From positions 2,039 to 66,038 of the forward strand of contig JAJFLQ010000134.1 of NCBI GenBank assembly GCA_021772615.1: DNA of 64,000 nucleotides. The letters are read 5' to 3'. Under the pieces are notes generated by a model, which saw only the letters and a list, made by a program, of their open reading frames with translations, searched no databases and had not been told where the DNA came from. This document shows, one piece after another, positions 25,350 to 54,579 of this stretch (positions are counted from its first letter, which is position 1; the number at the start of each line of letters is the position of its first letter). The DNA is from Verrucomicrobiota bacterium (lineage in GTDB: Bacteria; Verrucomicrobiota; Lentisphaeria; JABSQK01; JAJFLO01). A program made the translations under genes and the position numbers.

Positions 25350-25613
25350 GGATTGAGGCCCTCAGGGTAGAAAAGGCGAAACAGGAATGTGTTGTGATGC
25401 AATCGAAGCAGTGAGCCGGGCACACTGCATTACCAGACAACATACGCAATCCGCGGCGGGAATTCAATCAGCCGGAACAAAGTTCTGGCGCTCTCACGTC
25501 GGCGCTTTCACACTGCGGTAGAACGACCGCCGCACCGACCGTGAACCATGTTGCCGCCACGCCGACAATACCGTCCGCAGCTCACGAAGTTCGCCCCGAC
25601 TCCGGCGATTTTA

Positions 25614-25856
<243 letters not shown>

Positions 25857-25979
25857 TCATCCACGCAACATGGGTATTTAACCCAAGGTTTGAGGGGGAA
25901 TGTACCGATCGAGTCTTCCTCGCAGTCGATTTGCCCATCGCTCACCGAGCCGCCGATAGCTCGCCTCAACGTTCTTGAG

Positions 25980-29680: not shown

Positions 29681-29938
29681 ATGACCTTCGTATTCTTGAC
29701 CGTGCTTGTGGGTATCGTCGGCGGCGTTGTATGGGCTGTCGACCGATTCTCTGAAGACCGTCCCCGCGTGACGACTCTGCTTATCGGATCGATTCTCTTT
29801 TTCGCGGCTGTGATTGTCGCGAAAGAAGCCAGATATGCTCCACGGTTTCTGGCGATGATAGTCAGTAGCGTGCAGGTCAGCGGACTGGTTTTGTGTATTG
29901 TCGGTGTCGTCCGCTTACTGCGGAAGCCGGAAGATTGA
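29681..29938 (+). CDS. small (85 aa) three-helix membrane protein
   Basis: MTFVFLTVLVGIVGGVVWAV...LLIGSILFFAAVIVA...MIVSSVQVSGLVLCIVGVV; weak RBS. Confidence 0.3.
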   Translation: MTFVFLTVLVGIVGGVVWAVDRFSEDRPRVTTLLIGSILFFAAVIVAKEARYAPRFLAMIVSSVQVSGLVLCIVGVVRLLRKPED

Positions 29939-30035
29939 CGCGGCAGCTCCGGCCGAAACGTGCCGATCGGGAAAATCTCCACATCGCAATACCAACATCT
30001 CGAAATTGATTCAAGACCAAGGGTGCGTGGCGTCA

Positions 30036-33000: not shown

Positions 33001-34214
33001 CGGCAACAGAGCAGACGTCCGGCGTCGCTGCAGTCGACGTGCGGTTGCGCAATGACGATGACGGCACCTTCTGGAACGGCGCTTCCTGGCAGCAAAACGA
33101 GATCTGGATCGCGGCGACAGCGGATCTTCCCGCATGGTCCTTATCCGTATCCAGCGCGGCGCTTACACATGACACGACGTACTCGGTGAGCGCACGGGCG
33201 AATGACGCTGCCGGTAACGTTGACAACACACCGGCGACATCGTCATTTTCCTACGACGCCGTCGCGCCGGATATTGCCGTTGTCGAGGTATTGATCAACG
33301 TGCCGTTCGATAGTGGTTCGGTCGACATTGCCGCAGGCGTAGCGGCAACAGACGCCCATCTGGGAGTGATATCGACTCCGGACGTGCACGTTTCACCTGA
33401 TGCGATTGACAGTACTATCATCGGCGAAACACGTATTAGCTACAGCGCAGCAGACGCAGCGGGTAATACATCGAATGCATTTCGTGATTATCGCGTCGGC
33501 TTTCAAATTTCCGGAAATATCACATATGACAAGGCGACGGCGTCCACGCCGCTGATTGACGTTACTTCTCATGGCCAGGAAACCGATAGCATCGACGCGT
33601 CTGTTGCCGGCAACGGACCGTGGACATTTACATTGTTCATCGTCGGTGAGTCCGGAACATACGACCTGGCAGCGGTACTTGACACATCAGCCGACGGCGA
33701 GCCCGATGCCGAAGAGCCGGGCGACCGGTATGCCAACCGCAATGTGACCATTACGGACAATCTTGCGGACATCAATTTTCACGTCGCAGAATGGGAAGAT
33801 CTTGTGAGCTACGACGCCGGATGGAATTTCGTTGCGTTTCCGGGCCAACCGTTTTTCTCGGCTCCACATCAATTGATCGCAGGTGCACGGCCGGAATTAT
33901 GGGAAATCGATAACAGCAACAGTGGTTACCGACCGGCTTCGGAATTTTCTGCACTAAGCGGCCAATGGGTTTACCTCGACGTTCCTGCCCGCAATGTGCT
34001 TGTGCGCGGCAACTACCTGCCAGATTCGACTCAGACCATACCTGCCGGATGGCGGGCGATCGGCGTCAGGAACAGTCTGGTAAAACCTAATCTTCTGGGC
34101 CCGGTTTGGGAGTGGCGTGCGAATCGCTATCTTCTCGTCCCTCCGGGGAGTACGCTTCAGCGGTATTGTGGATATGTCGTTTTCGCCGCTGCGACAGTAA
34201 TATTCGTTTATTGA
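30036..34214 (+). CDS. giant secreted repeat protein (~1393 aa): signal peptide, 5 tandem ~200-aa repeats, HYR/Ig-like C-terminal region
   Basis: signal peptide MAVKTLKMRILISLVSALLPATVFAQS; repeated modules ..TxPPxSxVxTSGxFGPxTWxGxIxGxAxDxxSGVxxV..YWNG..SRAxDxAGNxE..FxFDxxPPxGxFxIGxGDP..NVTLxVxVxGATEMRFRNxSGxFPExW..GDGxKTVFAEFRDxAxNVL; C-terminal ..RISYSAADAAGNTSNAF. Confidence 0.8.
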   Translation: MAVKTLKMRILISLVSALLPATVFAQSFTGERHVTDAVTDGARPCYIVGADVEVTLSLTFDVPGGNVGVWGISERIPAGWAFVSANNNGEYDAPGKRVSGTATGNPPPEVSYILTPTSVGDTTFSTIEMGLFAGMLITGTMDDTILPECADDDVAPESSVITSGIHGPQTWSGVIHGTASDDTSGVASVIVTIQRLSDGRSWNGELWTVGFFSRPVSRGTTTWEYDLPLAALEEAGSGVGYVVVSRATDAVGNVQNEPGSNTFSFDSAPPTGVYFIGSGDPTYTTLLNVTLDVVVAGATEMRFRNVSGMFPESWTSIAGTFDFPLDGGDGTTTVFAEFRDAALNVLELSDDIIVDTTPPMSAVSTSGVFGPATWPGSIAGSASDNVSGVSNVHLRLHRSDDDMYWNGAAWGSDSTTFISASGDTTWSSIIPVAALSDGHSYAVDSRALDAAGNAESNLGNGFFQFDASAPVGSFSIGMGDPPFVISPNVTLAVAVSGATEMRFRNASGIFPESWSSVAAPFGFALDGGDGMKTVFAEFRDTARNVLALTDDVVLDATDPISTVLTAGTVGPNTWSGPIATVGGTASDSTSGVDQVTVTIQRLADGRSWDGDTWQFGFFPLGVSRGTTEWEYDLPFTALAEAGNGVGYVVVSRATDVAGNEQSEPGSNSFTFDSEPPTGLFTIGTGDPSYTTSPEVTLGVAVTGATEMRFRNASGNFPEAWTSVAGTLDFALAQGDGTKTVFAQFRDAALNVLAVSDSIVLDATMPVSAVSTSGAFGPSTWPDSIVTTASDNLSGISAVHIRLQRSSDDRYWNGSEWGDESETFLAASGDGVWSLSVSAGALTNGVNYGVNSRATDLAGNIEADFGSSTFQYDASPPAGAFFIVDDMTVYTNTPTVVLNNRITGADEMRIRNAGAAFPNVWLIFDSAPVWLLDTTADDGAQMVEIEFRDFAGNVLHLSDTIILDRVDPDTSLQPPDVFGPLTWPGEITGSATEQTSGVAAVDVRLRNDDDGTFWNGASWQQNEIWIAATADLPAWSLSVSSAALTHDTTYSVSARANDAAGNVDNTPATSSFSYDAVAPDIAVVEVLINVPFDSGSVDIAAGVAATDAHLGVISTPDVHVSPDAIDSTIIGETRISYSAADAAGNTSNAFRDYRVGFQISGNITYDKATASTPLIDVTSHGQETDSIDASVAGNGPWTFTLFIVGESGTYDLAAVLDTSADGEPDAEEPGDRYANRNVTITDNLADINFHVAEWEDLVSYDAGWNFVAFPGQPFFSAPHQLIAGARPELWEIDNSNSGYRPASEFSALSGQWVYLDVPARNVLVRGNYLPDSTQTIPAGWRAIGVRNSLVKPNLLGPVWEWRANRYLLVPPGSTLQRYCGYVVFAAATVIFVY
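30825..33300 (+). repeat. five intragenic tandem repeats, ~600-615 bp period, recognisable at nucleotide level
   Basis: recurring gagatgcgatttcgcaacg (30931, 31536, 32150; diverged at 32750) and FDSxPP junctions near 30825, 31425, 32042, 32640, 33245. Confidence 0.8.
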
Positions 34215-34267
34215 TTACAACTGCCGTCGGCATTGAGTTCCCCGGGACAATGCCATTGAATTAGGCA

Positions 34268-34307
34268 TTTTCGTTGGCATTCACATTCCCGGGAATGTGA
34301 ACGCTCC
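34268..34307 (+). repeat. dispersed repeat type X copy 1 with perfect 18-bp palindrome (cacattcccgggaatgtg), preceded by a second hairpin at 34230..34255
   Basis: ttttcgttggcattcacattcccgggaatgtgaacgctcc; related to 49112..49160. Confidence 0.55.
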
Positions 34308-34437
34308 GTTTGCGAGACGCCGAAAAGCCACATCAAAAGCCGTGAACAACGAAGTGCGTAAGATATTGCCGATTCACGCCGTGGATTATGTTTCGATGGT
34401 TGGCGAATACACGGAATGAAGGCCCGACAGGTATCGC

Positions 34438-35469
34438 ATGACACCACCACCGCCGATCGCCCCTCCGGTATCTGAGCAGGATGCCGACCACCGGTGTGTA
34501 CTGCACATTGGCTTGCCGAAAACCGGATCGAAGCTGCTTCAATGGCACCTGTTTGCGCGCCACAGCGAAGTCGATTTTCTTGGTCTGTATATCGGCGATG
34601 TTGCACGGCCCTACCAACAGTTCGGCAATTGCCGAACGGCTGCGGTTGAAAGCGTGATGCAGGAACTGCTGTGGAAAAACGTAGGCAATCCCGATATCGA
34701 ACGCTGCCGGGAGATTATTAAGGCATCGATCCTTCCGGCATTTGACAACGGAAAGATCCCTGTCTGGTCGTGGGAGTCACTCGCCACGGACAATCTCAAG
34801 GTTCGGCGAATGCGGGCCAGGAATCTATACAACGCCTTTGGTTCGTGCAAGATCATTGCTGCGGTCCGACATCCGTTTGACCTTCTCGAGTCCGCGTATT
34901 TCCAGATGCTGAAACGAGAAAATCTCTCCGTGCCTTTTCGTCGCCTTGACGGCGGCCGAGCCGCATACTGCATCGGAATTAAAAAATGGCTGGAAGATCA
35001 CTTTGGCGACGTCGTTATGGAGCATCTTGACTATGCCAAAACGATCAACATCTATAGCGAACTTTTCGGCAAAAACGCCGTGGCCGTCTTTCTTTACGAA
35101 GATTTGCGGGAAAATACGCCCGTGCATATAGAGAATGTGTGCCGTTTCATCGGCATCAATGCAGCCGAGGGCGTGACCTTAACCGATGGAAAGCAGGTGA
35201 ATTTACGATGGACTCAAAAGCAATTTGAAAATTTGAAACACATTCAGGCTTCGATGCTCAGGTCCCTGCTATTTCGGTTCACCTACAACACAAAACGACA
35301 TCGGGTTCTCGGATTCAGGTCGAACCCGGGACTGCGCGTTGGCCCCCCGGCTCGCGTCGCGATTCCCAAGGTATGGAAACGAAAAATCAGCGATGTAACC
35401 CGAAACGGGAATCGGTGGCTGGAGCAGGAATGGGGACTGCCGCTTCAGCGCTACGGCTATCCACTCTAG
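34438..35469 (+). CDS. sulfotransferase-family protein (intact PAPS-binding motifs)
   Basis: 5'-PSB-like HIGLPKTGSKLLQ; 3'-PB-like VRHPFDLLESAYFQ (RxPxDxxxSxY). Confidence 0.7.
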   Translation: MTPPPPIAPPVSEQDADHRCVLHIGLPKTGSKLLQWHLFARHSEVDFLGLYIGDVARPYQQFGNCRTAAVESVMQELLWKNVGNPDIERCREIIKASILPAFDNGKIPVWSWESLATDNLKVRRMRARNLYNAFGSCKIIAAVRHPFDLLESAYFQMLKRENLSVPFRRLDGGRAAYCIGIKKWLEDHFGDVVMEHLDYAKTINIYSELFGKNAVAVFLYEDLRENTPVHIENVCRFIGINAAEGVTLTDGKQVNLRWTQKQFENLKHIQASMLRSLLFRFTYNTKRHRVLGFRSNPGLRVGPPARVAIPKVWKRKISDVTRNGNRWLEQEWGLPLQRYGYPL

Positions 35470-35713
35470 AGGATTTCGAGCAAGAAATTCCAATTCATAA
35501 GCATCAAATGGCAAATAAACCACAATCTCGAATTAGCGAAATTGGCGATTCTGGAAAAAGTTTAAAGGAGGACTTGTCGGGACTCAGAAGTTTTCGTGTG
35601 AGCCGGCTCCGAATCATTTTTCGACAGTCTTCTGCAAACACGATCGACCTTATCTCGGTTGGCCCGAGAGCCAGGATATATGAAGAAACATATCAAATCA
35701 TACGCAAGCGGCG

Positions 35714-36757
35714 TTGAATCACCATCCGATGATCACCGATCGCAACATGGAGCCGGGCATCAGCTTTGCAGCGGAAGACAAACGCACCGGCGGCGGCGAC
35801 AACTGCGCCTGTATTCACATTGGCCTGCCCGGCGCCGACGCCCGTCTCCTGCAGGCGCATCTGTTCCCGACTCACAGTGAGGTATACTATCTTGGCCGCC
35901 ATGCTAACGAGGACTGTTTGTGGCGGAACCGTACCGTTCAGCAATTCGTCGCGGAGCTGCAGCGCCCGGGAATATCCCGTACCGAACTGTCGTCTTGTCG
36001 GGAGCTCGCAAACGAACTTATTACCACTGCATCCACTTCACTGCAACAATTGGTATTCTCATGGGAACGCCTGAGTACGGGCACGCGGGACAATCGATCT
36101 GCATGGCCGGAGTTGCTGCAGTCTATATTCGGAAATTGTAAGATTCTTGTTGTGCTCATGCACCCGGTCGCATTGATTGAATCCGCCTACTTCCGAATGT
36201 TGACGCGGCAATATGTCGGCGCCAATGCCCGCTGCGGGCGACTCGCCGATTTCGAAACCATCGAGGACTGGATTTCTCGGACTAATATCCTGCAACGCAA
36301 CGATGGATTGTTGGATTACCAGGAAACGGTGGCATCCTATGCCATTCTTTTTGGCAACGATGCCGTCAACGTCTTCCCCGCCGAAGCGATGGAAGAGCAA
36401 CGGGATTCTTATACACGGACGTTGTGCCGCTTTATCGGCATAGGCGCTGACGAAGACGTTACAGCATGTGAGCAATTTGAAGGTGCAAAACATCGCTGGA
36501 CATCGGCACAGGTCGAACGTTTGCAGAATGTTCAGCGCAACTTCTGGCAAGCTCTCAGATTTCGATTCGCGGACCGACGGATGCGCCGCATTCTTCTGGG
36601 CATGCACAAGGGGGATCCTGCTTTTGCAGCGCCGCCGGCCCGTGCGGCCATCTCCGACCGACATCGTGAGATCATCCAAGACCGAACACGAGAAGGCAAC
36701 CGATGGATTGCAGAGACGTGGCACGTACCGCTCGAAGAATATGGTTATCCACTGTAG
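35714..36757 (+). CDS. sulfotransferase paralog with degenerate PAPS-binding motifs (likely non-catalytic)
   Basis: same overall architecture as 34438..35469 (C-terminal ..NRWxxxxWxxPLxxYGYPL shared) but HIGLPGADARLLQ and MHPVALIESAYF replace the PKTGS and RxPxD motifs. Confidence 0.6.
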   Translation: MNHHPMITDRNMEPGISFAAEDKRTGGGDNCACIHIGLPGADARLLQAHLFPTHSEVYYLGRHANEDCLWRNRTVQQFVAELQRPGISRTELSSCRELANELITTASTSLQQLVFSWERLSTGTRDNRSAWPELLQSIFGNCKILVVLMHPVALIESAYFRMLTRQYVGANARCGRLADFETIEDWISRTNILQRNDGLLDYQETVASYAILFGNDAVNVFPAEAMEEQRDSYTRTLCRFIGIGADEDVTACEQFEGAKHRWTSAQVERLQNVQRNFWQALRFRFADRRMRRILLGMHKGDPAFAAPPARAAISDRHREIIQDRTREGNRWIAETWHVPLEEYGYPL

Positions 36758-36952
36758 CCACCCGTAGTTCAAAAAGGCCTGCAATATAGCGCACTGCAAC
36801 GCGTGATCGGTGCAGCATCCGGGACAGACGACTCAGCCCCCCCCGCATGGCGGCGGTTTAGGCTACTTTGTAGCTGTGAATCCAGCGTTTCGGAGACCTT
36901 TTCGAAAGGGCTGGCGAATGCGAACGATAGCAAGAAACAGAAGGGGTTGACA

Positions 36953-38095
36953 ATGCGAGGCGTCAAGTATATCGGCCCGGTTTTTGATGGAAGCGGGTAC
37001 GCGGAAGCGGCGCGGAACAACGTGCTCGCAATGGCGAGACAGGGATGTCCAGTGACGCTGGCACCGGTATCGTTTGACAGTATTCGGCCGGACCTGGGCG
37101 AGAACGGTGCGGTCTTGCGTCGCCTCGTCGACAAAGACATCCCCTACGACATCGTTATTATTCATTGCACCCCGGACATCTGGCGATTTTACGCCCAACA
37201 CGAAACAGATAAATACGTCATTGGTTGCACGATTTGGGAAACTACACGGCTGCATCCGGTATGGACAGCGGCATGCAACCGGATGCATGAAGTATGGGTG
37301 CCGACCCGCTGGAATAGTGATGTGTTCAGGGCATCCGGCGTCACGGTGCCATTGTACGACATTCCGTATTGCATGGACGTACCTGATGCAAATACGATAG
37401 AAACGATGCAAATACCTGGGGTGTCGGGCGATGACTTCGTATTTTATGCCATCTTTCAATGGCAGGAACGCAAGAATCCGCTCGGCCTGATCGCGACGTA
37501 CCTATCGGCTTTCACGGGAAACCGGAAGGTCGCCCTGGTTCTGAAATCTTACCTGAGCGACTATGAAACCGATCAGGACGCTATAAAAAAAATTATTAAT
37601 GCATTCAAGGCAGAGATGAATCTCGCGCACTATCCTAAAATCATCGTGTTGTCTGAAAATTTCAGCCGACACGAGCTGCTTTCTCTGCATCGGCGAGGCG
37701 ACTGTTTTGCGCTGCTGCAACGTTCGGAAGGCTGGGGCCTTCCGCATTTCGAGGCGGCAGCCTGCGGAAATCCCGTCGTGACGCCCCGATACGGCGCGCA
37801 GACAGAATTCCTAAACGATCACAACGCCTACCTGGTCGATTATTCGCTGCGGCCCGTGACCGGCATGTCGTGGTCGCCATATTATACCTCGACACAACTG
37901 TGGTGTGAACCCGACCAGGAACATGCAATGACCCTGCTGCGGTACGTGTATGAAAATCGTGATGAGGCCAATGCAAAAGGTCGTCTGGCAAGAGCTTTTG
38001 TTGAACAGCATTTCACCCCGGAACACGTGGGACAACGCATCGAGTCGCGATTGAACGCCATTCAACTCCCATTCCCGGATGTCGACGGCAATTGA
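36953..38095 (+). CDS. GT4-family (group 1) glycosyltransferase
   Basis: ORF 36803..38095 trimmed to ATG with AAGGGG RBS; C-terminal E..E motif region SEGWGLPHFEAAACGNPVVTPRYG. Confidence 0.8.
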   Translation: MRGVKYIGPVFDGSGYAEAARNNVLAMARQGCPVTLAPVSFDSIRPDLGENGAVLRRLVDKDIPYDIVIIHCTPDIWRFYAQHETDKYVIGCTIWETTRLHPVWTAACNRMHEVWVPTRWNSDVFRASGVTVPLYDIPYCMDVPDANTIETMQIPGVSGDDFVFYAIFQWQERKNPLGLIATYLSAFTGNRKVALVLKSYLSDYETDQDAIKKIINAFKAEMNLAHYPKIIVLSENFSRHELLSLHRRGDCFALLQRSEGWGLPHFEAAACGNPVVTPRYGAQTEFLNDHNAYLVDYSLRPVTGMSWSPYYTSTQLWCEPDQEHAMTLLRYVYENRDEANAKGRLARAFVEQHFTPEHVGQRIESRLNAIQLPFPDVDGN

Positions 38096-38115
38096 TATTA
38101 TCCAAATTTCGAGTC

Positions 38116-38182
38116 TGAGGTAAAGCCCTGTAAAGATGAACGTCCATTGGGGGGGACATCCGTTCGACGATGCGGTCGCCGC
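38116..38182 (+). repeat. dispersed intergenic repeat, type Y, copy 1 (carries small ORF 38136..38288)
   Basis: tgaggtaaagccctgtaaagatgaacgtccattgggggggacatccgttcgacgatgcggtcgccgc, ~75% identical to 48964..49035. Confidence 0.6.
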
Positions 38183-38232
38183 AGCACGGAAGAAGCAGGG
38201 CGTTCAAATGAATAGTATTACCGAGCGCTGGT

Positions 38233-39357
38233 TCACCGGAATCGCACGGGCACCATGCCGTTGTCCAGTTCATCGAGGCACTCAATGACCCGATCAATAG
38301 CCCGCTGCCACGTGTATTCCTTGCGGACACTATCGGCGGCGGTCGCCGCTTTCTTCGCCAGGTCGACCGCGTTCGCGTTGTAAGCGTCTACAAGGAAATC
38401 CACCAGCGTATCCACCGGTGTCTCACAGAAGTCAACGCCATCAAGGTCTTCCTCGAATCCCAGCGTGTTGAATGCAAACCGGCGATTGACCGGCAGAGCA
38501 ATCCGTTTAACCGGCAACATGAACGCGTTGGACGGCGTACAATAATCTCTGCACGCACCAAAGTTCGGGACAATCGGCGGAGTGCCGGTTGCCAGCGCTT
38601 CAAGTATCGGTGATGCAAAACCCTCCGCGCGGTACGGAAAAACAGCAACATCGCAACGCCTGTAGAGCGACGCGAGATCAGCGGCTTCAAGGTACGCATT
38701 GATGTAGATGATTTCCGGTGCATCGCGGTCGCGCGACACCCGATGGATCTGGTCTTTATAGGAAATGTTCGAATAAAACACATCACCGGAATGGTCTTTG
38801 ATAACCAGGGCAACGTCATCGTCACGGGAAAAAGCTCGGGTGTACGCGTCCAGCAGGATATCGATACCCTTGCGCTTGACCGCAGCGCCGACAAACAGGA
38901 ATACGAAGCGTTTTGGGGACGGCAGACGGTATCGAGGACCTTCGCGCCGGAATACGGCATGGTCAAATGCGAGCGGTATCACCCGGACCCGGTCCGCTGC
39001 AATACCGGAATTTACCGCCTGCTCGCAAACCCACCTGCTGTAAACCCACAGTTGATCACATTGCGCGTTTATGATATCGACCCACGCTGGCGGGTAAGGT
39101 CCGAAATCCCAGGTCCTCACAGCGACGAATTTGCCGTGCTCCGGAGGCTTAATCTCGCCAAATCGATCTTCGAAATCATGATGAATGACGACAGTGGCGG
39201 TCCGGCCAACGCCGGCAGAATCGGCATCTGTGATCACGCGATAACCGCGTTTGCGCAGGCCGGCGACCCACATCCGGTTCACAAGTGAATAGGCGCTTTT
39301 TTTCGTCGTGCTGCCGCGCAAGACAATGCAAGGACGATGGTCTTTCGGAGCTTCCAT
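38233..39357 (-). CDS. GT4-family (group 1) glycosyltransferase
   Basis: ORF 38233..39570 trimmed to MEAPKDHRPCIVLRG (avoids overlap with upstream gene); AEGFASPILEALATGTPPIVPNFGACRDY. Confidence 0.8.
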   Translation of the reverse strand: MEAPKDHRPCIVLRGSTTKKSAYSLVNRMWVAGLRKRGYRVITDADSAGVGRTATVVIHHDFEDRFGEIKPPEHGKFVAVRTWDFGPYPPAWVDIINAQCDQLWVYSRWVCEQAVNSGIAADRVRVIPLAFDHAVFRREGPRYRLPSPKRFVFLFVGAAVKRKGIDILLDAYTRAFSRDDDVALVIKDHSGDVFYSNISYKDQIHRVSRDRDAPEIIYINAYLEAADLASLYRRCDVAVFPYRAEGFASPILEALATGTPPIVPNFGACRDYCTPSNAFMLPVKRIALPVNRRFAFNTLGFEEDLDGVDFCETPVDTLVDFLVDAYNANAVDLAKKAATAADSVRKEYTWQRAIDRVIECLDELDNGMVPVRFR

Positions 39358-39532
39358 ATTGGTCGTGTTTTGGTTATCGATGCGTTTTGTTCGCTGCCCA
39401 CGTTTCACAATCAGCTGTAAGTTGATCACCTGCGCATGACCAGGCGGCTCGCGGGGCCGCCCGCCCTCCCCCAAGAGCGCTACCGATACGGGTTTGGAGG
39501 GGGAGCGGCACCGCGAGCCGATCCCTGCTGAT

Positions 39533-41704
39533 TTATGGTGCTTTGCTCTGCAAGAATTCAGCCAGCGCATCCAGATCCTGCAGATTTCTGCTGAGCGTTA
39601 GATCGAATACCTGCGTGGAGGCGGTCAAATCCCGGATAAACTGGTCAAACGCATCGCGATCCCCTGAATCAAAAAACCGATAGCGTTCGTGGATAACTTC
39701 GGTGATTCGAGCAAACGCGTCGTCACTGGTAATCGGCGTGATTTCGAATACATCGCCGATATGCGGAAAGAAAATGCGATCGAGCCCCCGGTCCTCATAG
39801 GGAGCGGCTGTGACATGATCGCTTAGTCTGATCTCCTTCTTTTTCACCCCGGCGAAATCTTTCCACTCGCAATCGATTTTTTCCGGAAAAAAGTGCTTTT
39901 CCGTCGCGGCAGTCACCCGCATTTTTCCATCGCAGCCGGAAATAAAGAACTGCCCTTCCTTACGTCGAAGAACAACGTGATCTTCCGCCAGGACCACCGC
40001 GCCGGCCTGGCCAAGGCGCAGGCTCATGGTTGATTTGCCCGAGCCATTGTGGCCAAAAAACATGTTCGTAGTCGCCCCCATCTGAATCCCTGCAGCATGA
40101 AGGTGAATGCGCCGGAAGCAGTACAGCAATCGGTACATTACGACCATGACGCTGTGCAGGATATAGTCACGGCTCTCACCTCGCGACATGATCGGCATGA
40201 CTATGATTGTGTGTTGTTCCCGCCGAAAAATGTGCGCAGCGACGGCATCATAGTAAATAATCGTGACATCTTCCAATTCCCGCCGTATGAAAATCGGCTT
40301 AAAGCCGTCGGAGTGATTCCTGCGTATAACCCACGGATCGTTACGTATCGTTTCGTCGTCAACGTCCAGGATGCAAAGCCGAATGTCCGGCGGATTCTTG
40401 CTGCCTGCGTCGGAGCAGCGGTGAAATTCGAGGCGAAACAAATCCTCGATCATGTCGATGTACGTCTCGTTCTCATATATAATGTGCGCAGACAGACTGC
40501 CAAAACGGAACCGCCCTTCCCGGTACGGCATAGCGTCGTCTGTCAATCGAAGGGGATTGCGAAGGAGGTAGTCGACGTTCCAGTCACGATGGGCGGATTG
40601 TGCACCCGAACGTCCCCCCAGCCTCCTAGTCAGGCCCCGAAAGAACGTCTTGTGATAAATCACGAGCCAGACGGGTAGACCGGCGATCCACCACACTTTT
40701 GCCGTTGCCGTACCGCAGGCATATTGCTGGAACGCCCACCGCTTTTTCTCCGCCAGAGTACTGTTTCCCAGCAAATGAAAATACTTCAGGCGGTCTGCGC
40801 GCAGACGCCATAATTGCTCGTGCTTCTTCACTGTCGCGGTGAGTGCCGGGAATTCGCCGTCGCACTCGAAAACAATCAGAAACATTGCCAGTACATTGGC
40901 CGCAATTGCTAGACACCCTTCGTGATCGCGCTCCGAGAAAAAATCGTCCCACGACAAAGAATCGTGAATTTTCCTGAGGATCATATAGAGATCGACGAAC
41001 GGACGGACCGTTATCGTTCCCAGGCTGATATCCTGATGAATTGTCAGGATCTGGGTGACAAGACAATACGTATCTGCAAGGCCGAGAAACGAATGGCTAT
41101 TTAAGGCAATCGTACATTTGCTGGCCCATATTCTATCGTAATCGAGGCGCAGCGCGATGTGCGTCCGCAGTTGATGGTGCAGGTCTAGCGGAATGCCGTC
41201 GTTGTGGAATTCGACATGATGCACAAAGCGAAACAGCAGATGCGATGTCAGCGTGACGCCCGACTCGGGTGCGAACCCCAGCTCGCGCAGCAGGCGTCTG
41301 CTGTGGTCGAAATCCCGAGGTCGCACCATCAAGTCGATGTCATGCGCCTCGCGGCGGTCGATATTGCCGTAAAATCGGCTGGCTAGATGGGGGCCCTTGA
41401 GAACAAGGAACTCGATGCCGGCAGACTCGAATCGTGTTGAGATCCGCCCCAGCTCCTGCACGAATTTCTCGTTGCGCTGCCATTGCATGAAATAACGATA
41501 CTTGAAGCGCGACCGGACATCACCGGGAAATATCGCCCGTTCGTGATCGCTCTTCAGGCATGTGTAAACAAAGCCGGCAAGTTGATTTTCCTGGCAGAAA
41601 TCAAAAAAACGATGCGGATCCGACTGTGCGAGCTGGTATCGAGCCAACTCGAATTCAGGCTTGACGATCGCTTTCAGTATTAAAAAGCCATGGAGGTCTG
41701 TCAT
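39533..41704 (-). CDS. fusion protein: N-terminal uncharacterised nucleotidyltransferase (NTP_transf_5-like) + C-terminal HprK-related P-loop kinase domain
   Basis: N-term FLVLKGPHLASRFYGNIDRREAHDIDLMVRP (NTP_transf_5-like); C-term LHAAGIQMGATTNMFFGHNGSGKSTMSLRLGQAGAVVLAEDHVVL (HprK-like P-loop). Confidence 0.65.
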   Translation of the reverse strand: MTDLHGFLILKAIVKPEFELARYQLAQSDPHRFFDFCQENQLAGFVYTCLKSDHERAIFPGDVRSRFKYRYFMQWQRNEKFVQELGRISTRFESAGIEFLVLKGPHLASRFYGNIDRREAHDIDLMVRPRDFDHSRRLLRELGFAPESGVTLTSHLLFRFVHHVEFHNDGIPLDLHHQLRTHIALRLDYDRIWASKCTIALNSHSFLGLADTYCLVTQILTIHQDISLGTITVRPFVDLYMILRKIHDSLSWDDFFSERDHEGCLAIAANVLAMFLIVFECDGEFPALTATVKKHEQLWRLRADRLKYFHLLGNSTLAEKKRWAFQQYACGTATAKVWWIAGLPVWLVIYHKTFFRGLTRRLGGRSGAQSAHRDWNVDYLLRNPLRLTDDAMPYREGRFRFGSLSAHIIYENETYIDMIEDLFRLEFHRCSDAGSKNPPDIRLCILDVDDETIRNDPWVIRRNHSDGFKPIFIRRELEDVTIIYYDAVAAHIFRREQHTIIVMPIMSRGESRDYILHSVMVVMYRLLYCFRRIHLHAAGIQMGATTNMFFGHNGSGKSTMSLRLGQAGAVVLAEDHVVLRRKEGQFFISGCDGKMRVTAATEKHFFPEKIDCEWKDFAGVKKKEIRLSDHVTAAPYEDRGLDRIFFPHIGDVFEITPITSDDAFARITEVIHERYRFFDSGDRDAFDQFIRDLTASTQVFDLTLSRNLQDLDALAEFLQSKAP

Positions 41705-41707
41705 GCG

Positions 41708-42184
41708 CTAAACCGATCGCACCCTGCGTCGACCGCCAAAGCCCGGCACCATTGTGATCAACCAGCGCCACCACGACCGCAGCAAATTAAATCTGGTGGC
41801 CCGCCGCCAGGCGAGGTCGTTTTCTGTTAACCACATGTCGTTGCGCCGACGTGCGGTAACCTTACCAAGAATCTCACTGAAGCTCACGTGATACTCCAGT
41901 GCGTGATCCATGCTGTCGCCTTTTATGATCACATATTGTTTTGGCCGATTTACGAAAATAACACGACGGGTCGGAAACTTGTCATCAAAACGATAGGTGA
42001 TAATATCTCCACATGAAATCCCCGAACCTTGGACAGCGCGGACAACCAGCTGATCGCCTTCCATCAGCAGCGGCAGCATGGTTTCGCCGTGAAAATACAC
42101 CGGGCGACGCGAGCTCGACGCGAGCAATTGCAGCTCCTTTGCGATGATGTGGCGATGTTCATGGTCCATGGTACTGTCACTCAC
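41708..42184 (-). CDS. S24/S26-like peptidase-fold protein with non-canonical catalytic positions
   Basis: HGETMLPLLMEGDQLVV / GDIITYRF / TRRVIFV resemble signal-peptidase boxes B/C/D but with Thr and Arg where Ser and Lys are expected; by-eye alignment only. Confidence 0.4.
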   Translation of the reverse strand: MSDSTMDHEHRHIIAKELQLLASSSRRPVYFHGETMLPLLMEGDQLVVRAVQGSGISCGDIITYRFDDKFPTRRVIFVNRPKQYVIIKGDSMDHALEYHVSFSEILGKVTARRRNDMWLTENDLAWRRATRFNLLRSWWRWLITMVPGFGGRRRVRSV

Positions 42185-42255
42185 GGAGCTACCTGAGTTG
42201 GTCTGAGGTCAATTATTCTCAATACCATTCTATAATCAGAAATGAAAGGTGAGCC

Positions 42256-42669
42256 ATGGAAAGTCGGTTTTCAGTGAACAGTGAGAATGCGGCGTGGCGA
42301 ATGGTAGAGGGCGAGGTGGTTATATTAAATGCCGAAACAACATACTACTACAGCCTGAACCCCACCGGCACCATCATATGGAAGCTGTTGCTTGACGATT
42401 TTTCCACGGTGCCAATAATCGCCACGTTCCTTGTCGGCATTACAAATCAATCACAGGACGTACTGGAACGCGTCGTCAAGGACTTTCTCGACCAGCTCGA
42501 AGACGAACAGTTGATTTTGAGCGATTTTGCCGAAGAACGCAACGACATCCAGCCGGATCCGGAATTGATTATGGCCGATATCTCAGCCGGTTTCGATGAG
42601 ACGGAGTATGAGGCGCCGGTGCTGCTGAAACATGACTCCCTCCAGCAACTGATTGTCAGCGCAGAGTAG
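42256..42669 (+). CDS. PqqD-family protein (RiPP-recognition-element-like peptide chaperone) with ~45-aa acidic C-terminal extension
   Basis: WRMVEGEVVILNAETTYYYSLNPTGTIIWKLL..VVKDFLDQLEDEQLIL matches the PqqD fold signature; RBS AAAGGTGAG. Confidence 0.75.
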   Translation: MESRFSVNSENAAWRMVEGEVVILNAETTYYYSLNPTGTIIWKLLLDDFSTVPIIATFLVGITNQSQDVLERVVKDFLDQLEDEQLILSDFAEERNDIQPDPELIMADISAGFDETEYEAPVLLKHDSLQQLIVSAE

Positions 42670-42832
42670 TGGGCGCCACCGACATTGAACCGCATGTCAC
42701 GGCGGGCATCGCGCCGGGGCGATAGTCGCGGACCGTGGAGCGACTGGCCGAGAAGGTATCGCAGAGTTTTTGCGTACTGTATCGCTACGGGACGGAGCCG
42801 GGTACAACGTTGAAAAACCGCCAATGGTTTGA

Positions 42833-44068
42833 TTGATCATGACCTCTACAAAATCCGACATCGTCATCGTGGGCGCGGGTGCGGCCGGCCTAATGGCGGC
42901 AATCTGGGCCGGCCGAACCGATTCCCGACGATCGATCATCCTGCTTGATGGCGCGCGAAAGTTGGGAGCCAAGATCCTCGTGGCCGGAGGCGGCCGCTGC
43001 AACGTAACGCACTACCACGTTGACCCGAAACGTTACGCCGGCTCGACCACACCGGCGATCGCGCGGGTGCTACGCCGTTTCGATGTCGCCGAAACGACAC
43101 GCTTTTTCAAAGAAATGGGAATATCGCTGAAACGCGAATCGACGGGAAAACTGTTCCCGACCTCAGATAAGGCCCGCGATGTCCTCAATGCGTTGCTCAC
43201 TGCGGCGAACGACGCGAATGTCGATATTCGCAACCCGTGCCGTGTCGACAATGTGAGTCGTACACCAGACGGTTATGCCGTCGACGGCGAATGGGGGCAT
43301 CTGACGTGTGAGAAACTCGTGTTGGCGACCGGCGGCTACAGCCTGCCAAAGTCGGGGTCCGACGGTAAGGGATTCGAATTCGTGAGTGCTCTGGGCCACT
43401 CGCCGACACGCACCTTCCCGGCTCTGGTTCCGTTGACACTGCCTGGCGATGATCAGATTTGTCAATTGAGCGGTATCACCTTACCCGCCTGTATTCGGCT
43501 TCATTCCGCAACCGGTAAGCGGATCGCAGCATTTACGGATTCGACACTTTGCACGCATTTTGGACTTTCTGGCCCGGCAATCCTCGACATCAGCAGGTAC
43601 TATCTGGATGCGGTCAGCAAGGATCCGGCTTCATACTTGACGATCAACTGGCTCCCCGCCATGTCGACTGACAACGTCGACGACGGCCTGCAGGCGCTCG
43701 GTCGTCGATCCGTGCAGGCGTATTTGCGGAAATGCGGATTGCCGGAGCGGCTGTCGGCGATGCTCTGCCGGTGTGCCGGTATCCCCGAAGGAACCAGGGG
43801 CGATCAACTCTTGCGTCGTCAACGACTGGACTTGTCGACAGCCGCTACAGCGATGCGGCTCGCCATTACCGGCGATCGCGGTTACACATTCGCCGAGGTC
43901 ACTGCGGGCGGCATTCCGTTAAATGAAATCACCCTGAAAAGCATGGAATCGCGTTGTTGCCCGGGGCTCTACCTGTGCGGTGAGCTATGCGCTGTCGACG
44001 GCCCGATCGGTGGTTTGAACTTTCAATGGGCCTGGGCCAGCGGCTATGTCGCCGGTGTATCGATCTGA
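42833..44068 (+). CDS. HI0933/BaiN-like FAD-dependent flavoprotein
   Basis: DIVIVGAGAAGLMAAIWAG...ILVAGGGRCNVTH..., C-terminal GELCAVDGPIGGLNFQWAWASG typical of this family. Confidence 0.8.
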   Translation: MIMTSTKSDIVIVGAGAAGLMAAIWAGRTDSRRSIILLDGARKLGAKILVAGGGRCNVTHYHVDPKRYAGSTTPAIARVLRRFDVAETTRFFKEMGISLKRESTGKLFPTSDKARDVLNALLTAANDANVDIRNPCRVDNVSRTPDGYAVDGEWGHLTCEKLVLATGGYSLPKSGSDGKGFEFVSALGHSPTRTFPALVPLTLPGDDQICQLSGITLPACIRLHSATGKRIAAFTDSTLCTHFGLSGPAILDISRYYLDAVSKDPASYLTINWLPAMSTDNVDDGLQALGRRSVQAYLRKCGLPERLSAMLCRCAGIPEGTRGDQLLRRQRLDLSTAATAMRLAITGDRGYTFAEVTAGGIPLNEITLKSMESRCCPGLYLCGELCAVDGPIGGLNFQWAWASGYVAGVSI

Positions 44069-44218
44069 ATCATTCATGCGATATTCAAACCAGGGTTCGA
44101 CGGGCGCAGCAGAGGGTGTACGAATTATTAAGGTTAGATGAGTCGTAACATATGCGAGCGACAGCGAGTGTATGATATTGCTCTCACTCTTTTGTTCTGT
44201 GGCCATTATTGCCTTCGC

Positions 44219-44674
44219 TCACGCGTTGGTTTGTTCATGCCAGTCAACCGGGAGGATCTGAATAATCGCGTCGACCGTACAGCGCCCCGAGAACTTCCCA
44301 TCACTACACGTTGCCTTCCAGAAAAACAGCGGAGTCTCGGAATCGAGCGACTCGAAATTTCTGACCCATTCCTCCATTATTGGGATCGTCTTCTTGTTCC
44401 TCTCCATAAACTCACGCCGCCGCCCGCGCCAAGCTCCAAGCTGGTCGTCAGCCAGTGCAAGTTTCCCTTGCTCCAATAGTTTCGACCCCCTGAGTCGACC
44501 TCGCCAAATGTCGAGTTGATGGTCACGAGGATAAAATGGCTCGCCGTGTCTGTCTCTGTCTACACGGCATTCCTCAATCTCGACGATGGATACGTCAGTA
44601 TATCCGGCTTTCGCCAGCTCTCTTGTCAGGTCATTTTTATTCATTTTAAACTGCAACAGAACGGCGACAATCAC
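44219..44674 (-). CDS. hypothetical protein
   Basis: 151-aa ORF with no recognisable motifs; coding status uncertain. Confidence 0.25.
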   Translation of the reverse strand: MIVAVLLQFKMNKNDLTRELAKAGYTDVSIVEIEECRVDRDRHGEPFYPRDHQLDIWRGRLRGSKLLEQGKLALADDQLGAWRGRRREFMERNKKTIPIMEEWVRNFESLDSETPLFFWKATCSDGKFSGRCTVDAIIQILPVDWHEQTNA

Positions 44675-44974: not shown

Positions 44975-47710
44975 TCATGATTCGGAGATTTTGATCTGCA
45001 TACTTTTAAGCGTTTGCCTGGCCAGTTCGCAAACTTGTACGGAAATAGTCTTACGAGACGACTCGATGGCTTCCAATATGGGAACGCCTTTCGGATCTCC
45101 ACAGTGGCCTAATGCTTCGACAACCTCGGTTATTAACGCATTCTTCTTACGCCTTGGTATTTCGGCAATTACTTGCCACACGCTCGCATCTTTGCGATAG
45201 GTTAGTCCGACAGCCGCAATTAACCTGGTTTCCTGCTCGTCAGATTCAAGAGACTTCTTCAGTAATTCAAGTCCGTGAGCGGTGCCGATTAACGCCATTC
45301 CTCGCGCTGCCTTTGAGCGAAGATGAATGCGTACATCGTCATCCTGAAAAGTTGGCAGTCGCGGAGAAATGTAGGTCGATGGATCCAGGAAAAGAGTCTG
45401 CAAGATCTCCATCGCCGTAACATCACCTATTGTTCCGAGTGTCTTCGCAGCGGCGACTTGGACAGTCCAGATTGGATCACGTAGAGCTTGGATCAAAGGT
45501 CGAACGGCCTGTTGGTCGCCGACGTGTCCCAAAGAATTGGCTGCAGAGCAGCGTAGTGAATCAGACGGCGAACCAAGCGCCTTTATGAGGGCTGGAGAAA
45601 CACGAGAATCTCTGGTGTAACGCAACCCGTACGCAGCTGCGCTACCACAGTCATCCTTCTTAAGTCGAGACAGCAAACCGGATACAGAAGCACGTGTGTT
45701 AATGCGACCTAGCGCCTGCGCTGCGCTGCAGGTAATCATGGAATACTGGCCTGGCGTGCCCTCACCGGCCGTCAGTTCATATGTTTTGCCGTCTAGACTC
45801 CGCAACAACGGCCTAATCGCACGAGGATCTCCCATTTTTCCGAGCGCAATCGCTGCTGCTTTCCTGAACGGCCGTATGCCGCCCCCATCCCGCCAGGCCC
45901 GTGGTGAACAACAATCCAACAACGGCGCCGATCAGGCACCGATGTAGAAGTGTGCGCCTGCGGTTTCGCCGACTCTGTTCGATCCTGCTCGCGGCGATGA
46001 GGCGTTGCTCATGCGGCATTAACACACCCAGCCCCATTGCACCCTGTTCTACGACCAGCAAATCCGGTCCGTCGAGGATCGCACCGTGATGGTCGTTGGC
46101 CCACTCCACAGCGCGATTTTTCAGTATCCGTCGAGCGCGTGGCCCAGGAAGATCCGACTCGTCGAATTTGTGTCGTATCGGCAAGGCCAAGGTGTCGTGG
46201 GCCAAGCGCGTCGTTCTCTTCGCGCTGTTGCCTTTTGAGCCAGATTCGAACAGTAGATAAAGGTTCTTGCATTCCTCCAGGAGTCCGGAAAGCTCCTGCT
46301 TGTGATTATTGTACATCTTCATCAGGTCATCTCGACACCGCTCAGCCGCTGTCATTTGTGGTGTGGTATGATACACCAACAGGTCAAGCACAAACCCGGA
46401 CGACACCAAATCTGGATAGACTCCCGCCAACTGCGCGAGCTGGCGATCTACAAAGTCGTCCAGGAGCAGACCCTGCTTTTTGATTCGTAGGTAAAGGGAT
46501 TCGGTAAATGCTGGCGTGGCGCTACTCAACTCCGCGGCTTCTTCCCACATCTTTGTCAACAAGATTTGCAGTGCCGGCGCCGTCGGGGAGTCGCGATCGT
46601 TAAGCAGGTCATCGGCAATCTGTTCCGGAACATGGGTTTCTATGGTAAGGCCATATTGCTTTTGCAATCGTGCCGTGCTCACCAGCCCGTTCACAATTTC
46701 AATAACGGCGTCTCGATCCAATGCCTCAAGGAATACTCTTCCAAAGCTTACCGCGTTCAGATCGAATATTTTCTGGACCTCCGGGAACCACTCCTTACGA
46801 AATGACACGAGTATCTTTCCCTGAAAATCGCGACCGTCGACCGTGAATATTTCACTGAGCGCCTGCGCCAATTCAGCCAATTCATTGGGCCGGTCCGCGT
46901 TCGGATGCGTAAACACTTCCTCTACCTGATCCAATAGAATGATGAGCGGCTTGCCGACCGCGACCTCGGCGGTCCGCCATGCCACCCTCAAGGGGGTTCC
47001 AACTGTGGAATGCCCCGGGCCATCGCTCCCGTCCTGATCGTCGGCCAAATGGATTAAGGCCTTTTGAATCGTGATCGTAAGACTGTCCTTCTGGTCCCGG
47101 CGAATGTACAGGATCTCGTAATCCCTCTTCAATCGCGGCAGGAGGCCGGCAGCCAGGAATGACGATTTTCCCACTCCAGTTTGCCCATAGAGCATTGTGA
47201 TCGGTGCGGCGGCGGCGCTGGTGATCCGCTGGTACAAACTCTTCAGTTCCCGATTGCGACCGAAAAATATTTCGGCATCTGTTTCGACGAAATACTGTAA
47301 TTAACGGAACGGCTTCGCCGGCAGATCGCGCCGGGGCAGACCAGGCAAACCCCAGCAAGGGTCTGGAATCGGCAAGATATCGGCGCATCGTTCCGTAACA
47401 GTCGCGATTGGCGCAGGTCCGCCAGCGGCAACGGACGAACAGGCAACGGAGTCACACATTCAAGCAACGCCCAATCTTCATGCTGATCATGAAATGCGCC
47501 GTAAATTACGGCTTCGGTCGTGTGCTCCGGAAATTTCAGCGTGATTGTGCCGGGGGCAGGAACGGGTGGGGTTTGGAAACGATCTGCGACTACATGCAAC
47601 GCAGTGAGCATCAGCCGCTCGGACACCAGGCATCCGGTTCCGCGACTGATATTCGTGCCATCGTCGACGATATCAATGCGAGCGATGGCGTTTCGGACCA
47701 CAGAATCCAT
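44975..47710 (-). pseudogene. decayed paralog of the protease-NTPase-repeat gene: trypsin-like domain (internally deleted) - STAND-type NTPase - TM - HEAT repeats, split by nonsense and frameshift
   Basis: ORFs 47243..47710 (trypsin N-term, MDSVVRNAIARIDIVDDG..GTGCLV..LTALHVVAD), 45813..47237 (P-loop MLYGQTGVGKSSFLAAGLLPRL.., TM) and 44975..45922 (HEAT/PBS repeats LGKMGDPRAIRPLL..) are collinear with the intact 54580..58902 gene; in-frame TAA at 47301..47303 where the intact copy has Tyr (PFRY-LQYF); frame changes near 47375..47415 and in the overlap 45813..45922 containing a C5 tract (45881..45885). Confidence 0.55.
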
Positions 47711-54513: not shown

Positions 54514-54579
54514 TATTCCCCCCTTTTGGTCTATCTTGTCGTTACCCGCTTTCACGGATCGGTTACGGCGGCGCATGGG

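Follow-up and report, generated by a model that had tools for sequence, protein, structure and literature searches.

What does a gene set act on that encodes two sulfotransferases, two glycosyltransferases of the GT4 type, a kinase fused to a nucleotidyltransferase (NTase), a signal peptidase I (SpI)-like protein and a PqqD-family protein? This question is raised by a locus at positions 34438-44068 of a 64-kb stretch of DNA from a Verrucomicrobiota bacterium (contig JAJFLQ010000134.1; the whole stretch is called the window below). An earlier reading of the bare sequence, here called the original prediction, had pictured the locus as a tailoring system for a peptide of the ribosomally synthesized, post-translationally modified kind (RiPP), with an exopolysaccharide locus as the alternative. 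The answer that we favor, and to which we give a probability of roughly one half, is that the genes form a peptide-tailoring cassette which resembles the pathways of linear polyphosphorylated peptides (LPP) and depends on a RiPP recognition element (RRE), and that its substrate is no separate gene product but the RRE protein's own C-terminal tail.

The interval holds eight long open reading frames (ORFs), and all genes listed for it earlier were found in place. Hidden Markov model (HMM) scans, paralogy and an AlphaFold2 model supported the predicted inventory of two sulfotransferases (ST1 and ST2), two GT4 enzymes (GTa and GTb), the fusion protein, the peptidase-fold protein and the divergently transcribed PqqD protein, the last of which is the RRE protein. 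These seven genes, at 34438-42669, constitute the cassette, in which a gap of 71 bp separates the RRE gene from the divergent genes for the SpI-like protein, the fusion protein and GTb. The eighth ORF, an HI0933-like flavoprotein gene that had been counted with the locus, proved to be unrelated to it: the gene accompanies the set in no related locus, which places the cassette boundary at 42669. The suggestion of a RiPP-like tailoring set around PqqD was supported, as the same core has been shown experimentally to be a RiPP pathway, LPP, reported from Bacillota only (PMC13381572). The LPP clusters combine the SpI-like LppS, the RRE protein LppB, the HprK-like kinase LppK, the NTP transferase LppN and the MsbA-like exporter LppD (Popov et al., Nat Commun 2026; PMC13381572).

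Co-occurrence in other genomes had been proposed as a check on the system, and orthologues of the cassette genes turned up together, with their order rearranged, in no fewer than seven independent loci, one of them in a Lysobacterales metagenome-assembled genome (MAG). This association is far beyond chance. In L002/L003 the genes for the tail-bearing RRE protein, an ABC exporter, two sulfotransferases and GTa are opposed by those for GTb, the fusion protein and the SpI-like protein on the other strand. The order is RRE, SpI-like, fusion, GTa, GTb and sulfotransferase in L009 (the Lysobacterales MAG), RRE, SpI-like, fusion and GTa in L007/L008, and sulfotransferase, RRE, fusion and GTb in L005/L013/L015. 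L016 has a GT4 gene and a 929-aa triple fusion of SpI-like protein, NTase and kinase, both divergent from genes for RRE, ABC exporter, sulfotransferase, glycosyltransferase and sulfotransferase. L017 (GCA_041579435.1) reads sulfotransferase, RRE, SpI-like, fusion, GT4, glycosyltransferase and ABC exporter, and L019 has the RRE gene, then adjacent unfused NTase and kinase genes, then two glycosyltransferase genes. Linkage of the SpI-like gene to the set is kept in L002, L007, L009, L016 and L017, and the set includes an MsbA-like exporter in L002, L010, L016 and L017. The NTase also occurs in natural fusions with the SpI-like protein and the kinase (P0011, L016), with the SpI-like protein (P0019), with Sulfotransfer_2 (P0028), with GT4 (P0120) and with PqqD (P0073, P0135).

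An exhaustive HMMER search for relatives of the fusion protein, run over 1.84 billion representatives, gave about ten clusters of full-length fusions along with hundreds of stand-alone NTases (~360 aa) and kinases (~330 aa); a word-index search with the fusion protein returned the fusion protein alone. With these and about 25 clusters of tail-bearing RRE proteins among billions of proteins, the cassette is a rare conserved unit found in several lineages.

Several observations concern the related loci themselves. In distant relatives from Ca. Multivoradales and Thermoanaerobaculia (L010 8585-9911, L011 8365-9723, L012 8565-9926 and L014 141-1448), the fusion is preceded by a protein with two tandem PqqD-like domains and a DUF218/YdcF-like domain; this protein has no LIVSxE tail, and sulfotransferases still adjoin. 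A large sulfatase (38-2485) flanks the cassette of L007, and an arylsulfotransferase and a Sulfotransfer_2 gene (4094-6529) flank that of L017, in line with sulfate chemistry around these loci.

The key to the proposed substrate is the architecture of the RRE protein. Its PqqD assignment, part of the earlier picture, was upheld by PF05402 (Table 1), and its best NCBIfam match was lasso_PqqD_Bac (35 bits; cut-off 80). The N-terminal domain was modeled with a predicted local distance difference test score (pLDDT) of ~90, the whole protein with 81. The best structural matches of the domain in Foldseek were TbiB1 (5v1v/5v1u; E 1.6e-4, TMt 0.88) and TfuB1, and its profile matched TbiB1 (8e-14), PbaB1 (1e-11) and LppB (4e-6). 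The solved RREs all end at residue 87-90 of this protein, which continues beyond them for 47 residues of linker and tail. The tail reads E-Y118-E-A-P121-V-L123-L-K and, after Lys125, HDSLQQLIVSAE, with H-D-S128 at the start of this segment and L-I-V-S135-A-E137 at its end. Its consensus among homologues is P-Y-x-x-P-x-L-x-K-[Y/F/H]-D-T-L-E-x-L-I-V-S-G-E-COOH, with the variants D[TS] and LIV[S/C][G/A]E. Mean pairwise identity among 25 homologues was 70% for the tail, 44.5% for the RRE domain and 17% for the linker, whose length ranges from 17 to 31 aa; the tail is thus the best-conserved part of the RRE protein. Two columns only were invariant in the alignment of 28 sequences (A3), Leu81 of the RRE domain and Pro121 of the tail.

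The motif [Y/W]xxPx[L/V/I] is the one through which lasso-type RREs recognize leader peptides (PMC10368454, PMC13381572). Precursors of LPP, which are 35-200 aa long, carry it in an N-terminal leader, YxxPxVLxHQxIxFETxxS, ahead of a variable C-terminal core (PMC13381572). The tail is in register with this leader over the first 12 positions (Y, P, V/L, an aromatic residue or His at -8, a polar residue at -7 and an aliphatic one at -5), Pro121 corresponding to Pro-13 and Leu123 to Val-11 of LppA. On the side of the groove, an HMM alignment to LppB equates Leu81 with Met78 of the second hydrophobic pocket, Phe77 with Phe74, Leu86 with Leu83, Leu34 with Leu32 and Asn35 with Asn33; Leu34, Asn35 and Leu86 are near-invariant. 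In the LppB-LppA crystal structure, Leu32, Asn33 and Leu83 contact the leader, and Asn33 fixes a kink at the leader proline (PMC13381572). AlphaFold2 placed a confident beta-strand at tail residues 123-126 (pLDDT of the block 86), matching the part of the leader (-12 to -7) by which the RRE sheet is lengthened in that crystal. A profile of the tail searched against PDB chains, with the LppA leader in 9x8z as the aim, gave no meaningful match, so that the likeness to the LPP leader is based on the consensus in print.

From these comparisons the RRE protein appears to be a natural fusion of an RRE with a leader, and we propose that its tail is a tethered recognition peptide as well as the putative acceptor of the modification. 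The RRE domain is predicted to bind its own [Y/W]xxPxL tail in the leader groove, in cis or, within a dimer, in trans. A beta-strand of residues 122-127 would join the RRE sheet, and Pro121 and Leu123 would lie against Leu34, Asn35, Phe77, Leu81 and Leu86. Without a leader, LppB is insoluble and PbaB1 folds only marginally; the insolubility of LppB makes a tethered leader plausible.

In one subfamily (L007-L009, L019) the tail starts with WxxP and ends in LIVCGE, with Cys in place of Ser. The RRE strand of such proteins (L007 2773-3180, L009 9022-9429, L019 4009-4413) reads YYGLN instead of YYSLN. This association of W, Cys and YYGLN, seen in three W-type sequences, is an observation rather than evidence; these proteins may be a co-varying subfamily.

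A search for a precursor gene, which the original prediction had proposed, yielded no separate precursor; the leader-like tail on the PqqD protein itself had been missed. Neither the enumeration of intergenic small ORFs nor all-against-all BLAST of seven loci disclosed a conserved small ORF, and the BLAST matches among small ORFs were alternate-frame shadows of conserved genes only. Neither the window nor any related locus contained an ORF for a distinct precursor of 35-200 aa in which a leader at the N-terminus is followed by a variable core. By a six-frame scan of all loci, the tail motif occurs once per locus, in the RRE protein only.

The same tail could instead be a tethered pseudo-leader or scaffold that stabilizes the RRE groove and recruits the SpI-like protein and the NTase-kinase, the modified molecule being found elsewhere, an explanation that we hold to be rather unlikely. 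The target could then be some peptide or protein whose gene lies beyond the cassette. Otherwise it could be a glycan or lipid intermediate that the kinase, the NTase, the GT4 enzymes and the sulfotransferases assemble and the ABC exporter moves. In view of how LppB and PbaB1 behave without a leader, a built-in leader could be purely structural, and the exchange of the putative acceptor Ser for Cys in one subfamily also speaks for a scaffold. So do the FomB and PEPCK matches of the kinase half (see below), small-molecule kinases sharing this fold, and the facts that LPP clusters of Bacilli sit within capsule loci and that LppN showed no activity toward the phosphopeptide in a heterologous host (PMC13381572). 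A groove filled by a tethered leader, however, leaves the RRE no obvious route to another peptide, and the loci yielded no further ORF with a leader. Moreover, conservation of the terminal LIV[S/C][G/A]E-COOH equals that of the binding motif, suggesting a separate function for this end, and the characterized kinase relatives in RRE contexts all phosphorylate peptides.

If the tail is the substrate, the SpI-like protein has no core peptide to release. The gene had been read as an S26-like peptidase; the signal-peptidase fold held, albeit at weak scores, and the catalytic Ser and His/Lys did not, being Thr and Arg. In a profile of six family members (A4), GxT35MLP aligned with GESMDP of Staphylococcus aureus SpsB and SGSMEP of human SEC11C, and PTR73RVI with VKRVI of SpsB and VHRVI of SEC11C. 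The general base of signal peptidases is Lys in S26A and His in the archaeal/ER type. Here, Thr35 (codon 42080-42082) occupies the position of the nucleophilic Ser and Arg73 (codon 41966-41968) that of the His/Lys, both codon positions having been verified, and Asp90 of the G/A-D motif is kept. The Thr and the Arg are invariant in all nine SpI-like homologues, fused forms included. There is no evident transmembrane segment in the protein, and a conserved N-terminal helix, [I/V]A[K/R/M]EL[Q/R/A]L, lies ahead of the GxTMLP motif. On the strength of these replacements the SpI-like protein is a probable pseudo-peptidase or adaptor.

The window contains upstream housekeeping genes for DnaA, the signal peptidase I LepB and LepA, so that the genome has a normal S26 signal peptidase besides the degenerate SpI-like protein. 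The SpI-like family profile gave no significant match to this housekeeping LepB.

LppS, with the residues S29/H68/D93, cuts off the leader only when LppB presents it (PMC13381572). By analogy with the recognition of LppB plus leader by LppS, the SpI-like protein would recognize the platform formed by RRE and tail, hold it as a non-cleaving adaptor, and present the ...LIV-S/C-G/A-E end to the kinase-NTase. Such a role fits the fusion of SpI-like domains to the N-terminus of the NTase-kinase in relatives and the lack of a core to release, through which catalysis may have become dispensable.

Missing catalytic residues would also be seen in a decaying, non-functional remnant of a phosphorylated lasso or LPP cluster that had lost its cyclase, its B2 or active peptidase and its precursor, and the degenerate motifs of ST2 (see below), the lack of an exporter in the window and the lack of a separate precursor would agree with such a history. 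We nevertheless regard it as extremely improbable. The invariance of Thr and Arg in at least 9 homologues and of the tail-borne leader in at least 25, from different lineages, points to selection, not decay, and the catalytic motifs of the NTase, the kinase, ST1 and both GT4 enzymes are intact, with all ORFs at full length.

The platform would be presented to the 723-aa fusion protein, in which kinase and NTase are joined as predicted, according to the NTP_transf_5 match and the AlphaFold2 fold. The NTase half is a Pol-beta-type NTP_transf_5 domain with invariant D122 and D124 (alignment A2). The proposed HprK-like nature of the kinase half was weak by HMM and held by fold: its HMM matches alone are weak (TIGR04355 HprK_rel_B, 1.3e-4; FomB kinase, 1.5e-3), its profile aligns with the P-loop regions of HprK/P and of phosphoenolpyruvate carboxykinase (PEPCK), and its Walker A motif (G551..G-x-G-K557-S-T) and E574-D575-H576 motif are invariant or nearly so among fusion homologues. 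The AlphaFold2 model, built on ten fusion homologues, had a pLDDT of 84.7. In Foldseek its C-terminal half matched ATP-dependent PEPCK (1.4e-8) and HprK/P (~1e-5), and its N-terminal half the nucleotidyltransferases ANT(2'')-Ia and LnuA (~1e-3, TMt 0.67-0.69). By this model the HprK/PEPCK kinase fold of the C-terminal half is confirmed.

In lasso precursors the C-terminal Ser receives phosphate from HprK-like kinases (PMC8498205), and LppK polyphosphorylates Ser3 of the core and does not accept Thr (PMC13381572). By homology, the kinase half would phosphorylate a hydroxyl of the tail, with Ser135 as the favored candidate, because the Ser that LppK and the paeninodin kinases modify lies at the end of the recognized segment or close to it, and Ser/Thr128 as the alternative. 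In pseudomycoidin, hexoses are added to phospho-Ser by PsmN, a PF14907 NTase (PMC8498205); the NTP_transf_5 half may elaborate the phosphate of the tail in the same way.

The remaining four cassette proteins would act on a glycan. ST1 scored 38.7 bits with Sulfotransfer_1 and 32.3 bits with Sulfotransfer_3 (cut-offs 22 and 27), and a motif alignment showed that its 5'-PSB loop (P27-K-T-G-S-K) and its RHP 3'-phosphate motif are whole; orthologues (1e-38 to 1e-116) occur in L002, L005, L009, L010, L011, L016 and L017. The second sulfotransferase of the predicted pair is present too, with degenerate binding motifs for 3'-phosphoadenosine 5'-phosphosulfate (PAPS). ST2 had no match in Pfam or NCBIfam, its PAPS loop has changed from PKTGSK to PGADAR, and its 3'-phosphate motif from RHP to MHP with loss of the Arg. 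Judged by these motifs ST2 is probably non-catalytic, unlike the second sulfotransferase copies of L002 and L010, which retain the PAPS motifs. The C-terminus ...YGYPL-COOH is common to the entire sulfotransferase family of these cassettes, ST1 included.

GTa and GTb are paralogues of 26% identity that scored 33.8 and 67.5 bits, respectively, with Glycos_transf_1 (cut-off 26.4). The true start of GTa is likely M51 at 36953 (~380 aa), its orthologues having 378 aa; they were found at 1e-139 to 1e-155 in L002, L007 and L009, with further ones in L016, L017 and L019. The longest ORF of GTb runs into the end of the fusion gene, and its true start, the position of which was checked, is likely M72 at 39357 (~374 aa); its orthologues in L002, L009, L016, L017, L005 and L019 have 369-373 aa. 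Family membership and strict co-occurrence suggest that the two GT4 enzymes lengthen a short glycan, which ST1 sulfates in a PAPS-dependent manner. Export may proceed through the MsbA-like ABC exporter in the relatives; in the present genome its gene would lie elsewhere, or the product would stay cell-associated. The net product would be a protein of ~15 kDa, or a fragment of it, with a sulfated phosphoglycan on its C-terminal tail. In evolutionary terms, and only tentatively, a RiPP pathway may here have turned into a carrier-protein system, with the RRE protein as the covalent acceptor of a phosphate-linked sulfated glycan and the pseudo-peptidase as the presenting adaptor.

Two GT4 and two sulfotransferase genes are also what an ordinary locus for a sulfated exopolysaccharide or capsule would contain, the PqqD, kinase, NTase and peptidase-like genes then being unrelated neighbors or regulators. 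The capsule loci around the LPP clusters of Bacilli, and the PEP-CTERM protein and the large Ig-like-repeat protein in the window, would suit this explanation, to which we assign a low probability. The locus has no genes for a polymerase, a flippase, a chain-length regulator, a priming phosphoglycosyltransferase or sugar-nucleotide synthesis, and the same sulfotransferase and GT4 orthologues travel with the tail-bearing RRE protein and the NTase-kinase in unrelated genomic backgrounds; fusions of sulfotransferase or GT4 with NTase are also known. With RRE and tail conserved in this way, the pure exopolysaccharide locus offered earlier as an alternative is unlikely. The PEP-CTERM and giant proteins cited for it do exist, but conservation with the set is lacking for both, and the former lies ~19 kb away; a link of either to the cassette was rejected.

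Several points weigh against tailoring of the RRE protein's own tail. The acceptor residue, the product of the NTase, the sugars and the sulfation are all inferred. Contact between tail and groove is deduced from secondary structure and pLDDT, not from model coordinates. Past position -5 the tail departs from the LPP consensus, with no F-E-T and with the Ser one residue out of register. The candidate acceptors are not ideal either: the WxxP subfamily has Cys at the position of Ser135, a poor fit for a Ser kinase, and position 128 is mostly Thr among homologues, while LppK rejects Thr. Furthermore, the HprK/PEPCK fold includes small-molecule kinases, as the FomB match recalls, and the kinase could act on a sugar or a phosphonate. 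The homology scores for the SpI fold are weak (E ~1e-3 to 1e-7), the SpI-like gene is missing from L005 and L019, and Thr35 might still act as a nucleophile. Finally, the 64-kb window has no homologue of the MsbA-like exporter, its sole ABC match being a MacB/Lol-type ATPase.

Table 1. Coordinates of the cassette genes, their parts and other features of the window.
Feature	Position	Strand	Length or residues	Basis
ST1, sulfotransferase	34438-35469	+	343 aa	Sulfotransfer_1 9.7e-10, Sulfotransfer_3 1.6e-7
ST2, sulfotransferase paralogue	35714-36757	+	347 aa	35% identity to ST1, 3e-57
GTa, GT4-type glycosyltransferase	36803-38095	+	longest ORF 430 aa	Glycos_transf_1 3.1e-8, Glyco_trans_1_2, Glyco_trans_1_4
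GTb, GT4 glycosyltransferase	38233-39570	-	longest ORF 445 aa	Glycos_transf_1 1.3e-18, Glyco_trans_1_4 1.1e-13
NTase-kinase fusion protein	39533-41704	-	723 aa	NTP_transf_5 and HprK/PEPCK-fold P-loop kinase
Fusion protein, kinase half	39533-40531	-	aa 392-723 and stop codon	HprK/PEPCK-fold P-loop kinase
Fusion protein, disordered linker connecting NTase and kinase halves	40532-40636	-	aa 357-391	pLDDT < 50
Fusion protein, NTase half	40637-41704	-	aa 1-356	PF14907 (NTP_transf_5) 7.6e-40 over aa 28-274
SpI-like protein	41708-42184	-	158 aa	TIGR02228 7.2e-7, Peptidase_S24 2.3e-3
PqqD/RRE protein	42256-42669	+	137 aa	PF05402 3.2e-13
RRE protein, RRE domain (PqqD fold, lasso-B1/LPP type)	42256-42525	+	aa 1-90	
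RRE protein, hypervariable linker	42526-42603	+	aa 91-116	pLDDT 53-67; residues 94-98 < 50
RRE protein, C-terminal tail	42604-42669	+	aa 117-137 and stop codon	alignments A1, A3, A5
HI0933-like flavoprotein	42833-44068			TIGR00275 2e-110
MacB/Lol-type ATPase	11195-11875			
DnaA	13164-14558			
Signal peptidase I LepB	17418-18770			
LepA	18784-20637			
Listed ORF containing tRNA-Arg	25548-27506			
tRNA-Arg (CCG)	25761-25837			
Big_13 protein	29898-34214		1438 aa	Ig-like repeats
HEAT/PBS-lyase-like repeat protein	44975-45922	-		
nSTAND1 NTPase	45813-47237	-		
Trypsin-like peptidase	47243-47710	-		
GMC-oxidoreductase/alpha-beta-hydrolase fusion	51115-54576	-	1153 aa	
nSTAND1 NTPase with many WD40 repeats	54580-58902	-	1440 aa	
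Trypsin-like peptidase	61741-62370			
PEP-CTERM protein	62933-63769			PF07589 5e-5

The surroundings of the cassette are heterogeneous. The HEAT/PBS-lyase-like repeat protein, the nSTAND1 NTPase and the trypsin-like peptidase at 44975-47710 look like a STAND-type conflict or signaling module beside the cassette and are not conserved with it. A second group on the same strand (51115-58902) pairs the large WD40-repeat nSTAND1 NTPase with the adjoining GMC-oxidoreductase/alpha-beta-hydrolase fusion. The PEP-CTERM protein, with the tail ...VPEPSTYALILTGFLGLGWIKRKR, is encoded next to another trypsin-like peptidase gene. A tRNA-Arg gene lies inside a listed ORF, the N-terminal part of which is therefore probably non-coding. 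A promoter and terminator scan of 34000-44300 gave results at chance level, and a PADLOC scan returned zero defense-system matches.

The cassette and its relatives show LPP-type machinery in phyla beyond Bacillota, to which LPP was thought confined, and this machinery travels with fixed downstream enzymes, two GT4 enzymes and one or two sulfotransferases, on which LppN may depend. If the proposal is true, the cassette would perform a protein-tail or protein-primed synthesis of a sulfated phosphoglycan, for which there is no described precedent, either as a type of modification or as a way of using an RRE, and such a modification would also occur in Gram-negative lineages outside Bacillota. Sulfated phosphoglycans linked to a peptide or protein would add a new chemistry to bacterial modifications. 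A natural fusion of an RRE with its recognition peptide, together with a change from peptidase to adaptor, would inform RiPP evolution and the engineering of leader-independent tailoring enzymes. The acceptor candidate, a defined and invariant tail of 20 residues on a soluble protein, is easier to follow by mass spectrometry than a variable core, and the full modification could be reconstituted from seven genes.

How, then, does the cassette relate to known systems? Its SpI-like protein shares with the signal peptidases SpsB, LepB, SipW and SEC11 the beta-strands of the catalytic core and the GxSMxP-like, (K/H)RV-like and GD motifs, and it differs from them in having Thr/Arg for Ser/Lys-His, no evident membrane anchor and, in some cases, a fusion to a cytoplasmic NTase-kinase. 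Membership in an HPr-rel-A-type set, which the original prediction had suggested, was not supported: TIGR04352 and TIGR04353 had no match at E<=0.01, and TIGR04355 reached 21.2 bits against a cut-off of 200. Like the HPr-rel-A and SynChlorMet sets, the cassette has a kinase of the HprK superfamily beside a PqqD chaperone, with weak cross-matches to HprK_rel_B, ScmC and ScmD; unlike the cassette, these sets have no tail-bearing RRE, SpI-like, sulfotransferase or GT4 component on record.

More is shared with the phosphorylated lasso clusters (paeninodin with PadeK, the Bsf family, pseudomycoidin with PsmK/PsmN), namely the tailoring pair of kinase and PF14907 NTase, an RRE of the B1 type (TbiB1, PbaB1, TfuB1) and the YxxPxL motif. 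Sulfotransferase genes occur in some lasso clusters of Firmicutes, where kinase and NTase are accessory as well (PMC8498205). The kinase targets of these clusters are, however, C-terminal Ser residues of separate precursors, and the cassette has no cyclase, B2 cysteine peptidase or macrolactam-forming precursor. As predicted, the main ORFs of the window included no lasso cyclase, B2 peptidase, YcaO or radical-SAM enzyme; cyclase and B2 peptidase were likewise lacking among the called genes of the related loci, and the locus is not a lasso cluster.

The closest relative is LPP, with which the cassette has in common an archaeal-type SpI-fold protein, a lasso-type RRE, an HprK-like kinase and a PF14907 NTP transferase with no macrolactam cyclase present, as well as the [Y/W]xxPx[V/L] motif through -5 and an association with glycosylation genes; an MsbA-like exporter, too, is present in most relatives of the cassette. 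The differences are nonetheless substantial. The leader-like motif forms the end of the RRE protein, its C-terminal tail, in contrast to the N-terminus of a separate LPP precursor, and the protein stops two residues past the conserved Ser/Cys, with no variable core. Comparison with the discrete RRE of LPP points both ways: fold and pocket residues are there, and the protein also bears a linker and tail of 47 aa and is by profile closer to TbiB1 and PbaB1 than to LppB. The SpI-like protein has Thr/Arg where LppS has Ser/His, kinase and NTase form one polypeptide, at times also with the SpI-like domain, and two GT4 enzymes and one or two sulfotransferases are core members. Since a separate precursor, the catalytic Ser/His and an exporter in the window are lacking and relatives (the Lysobacterales MAG and others) lie outside Bacillota, the cassette is not filed as a member of LPP; it is a variant of the LPP/phosphorylated-lasso machinery.

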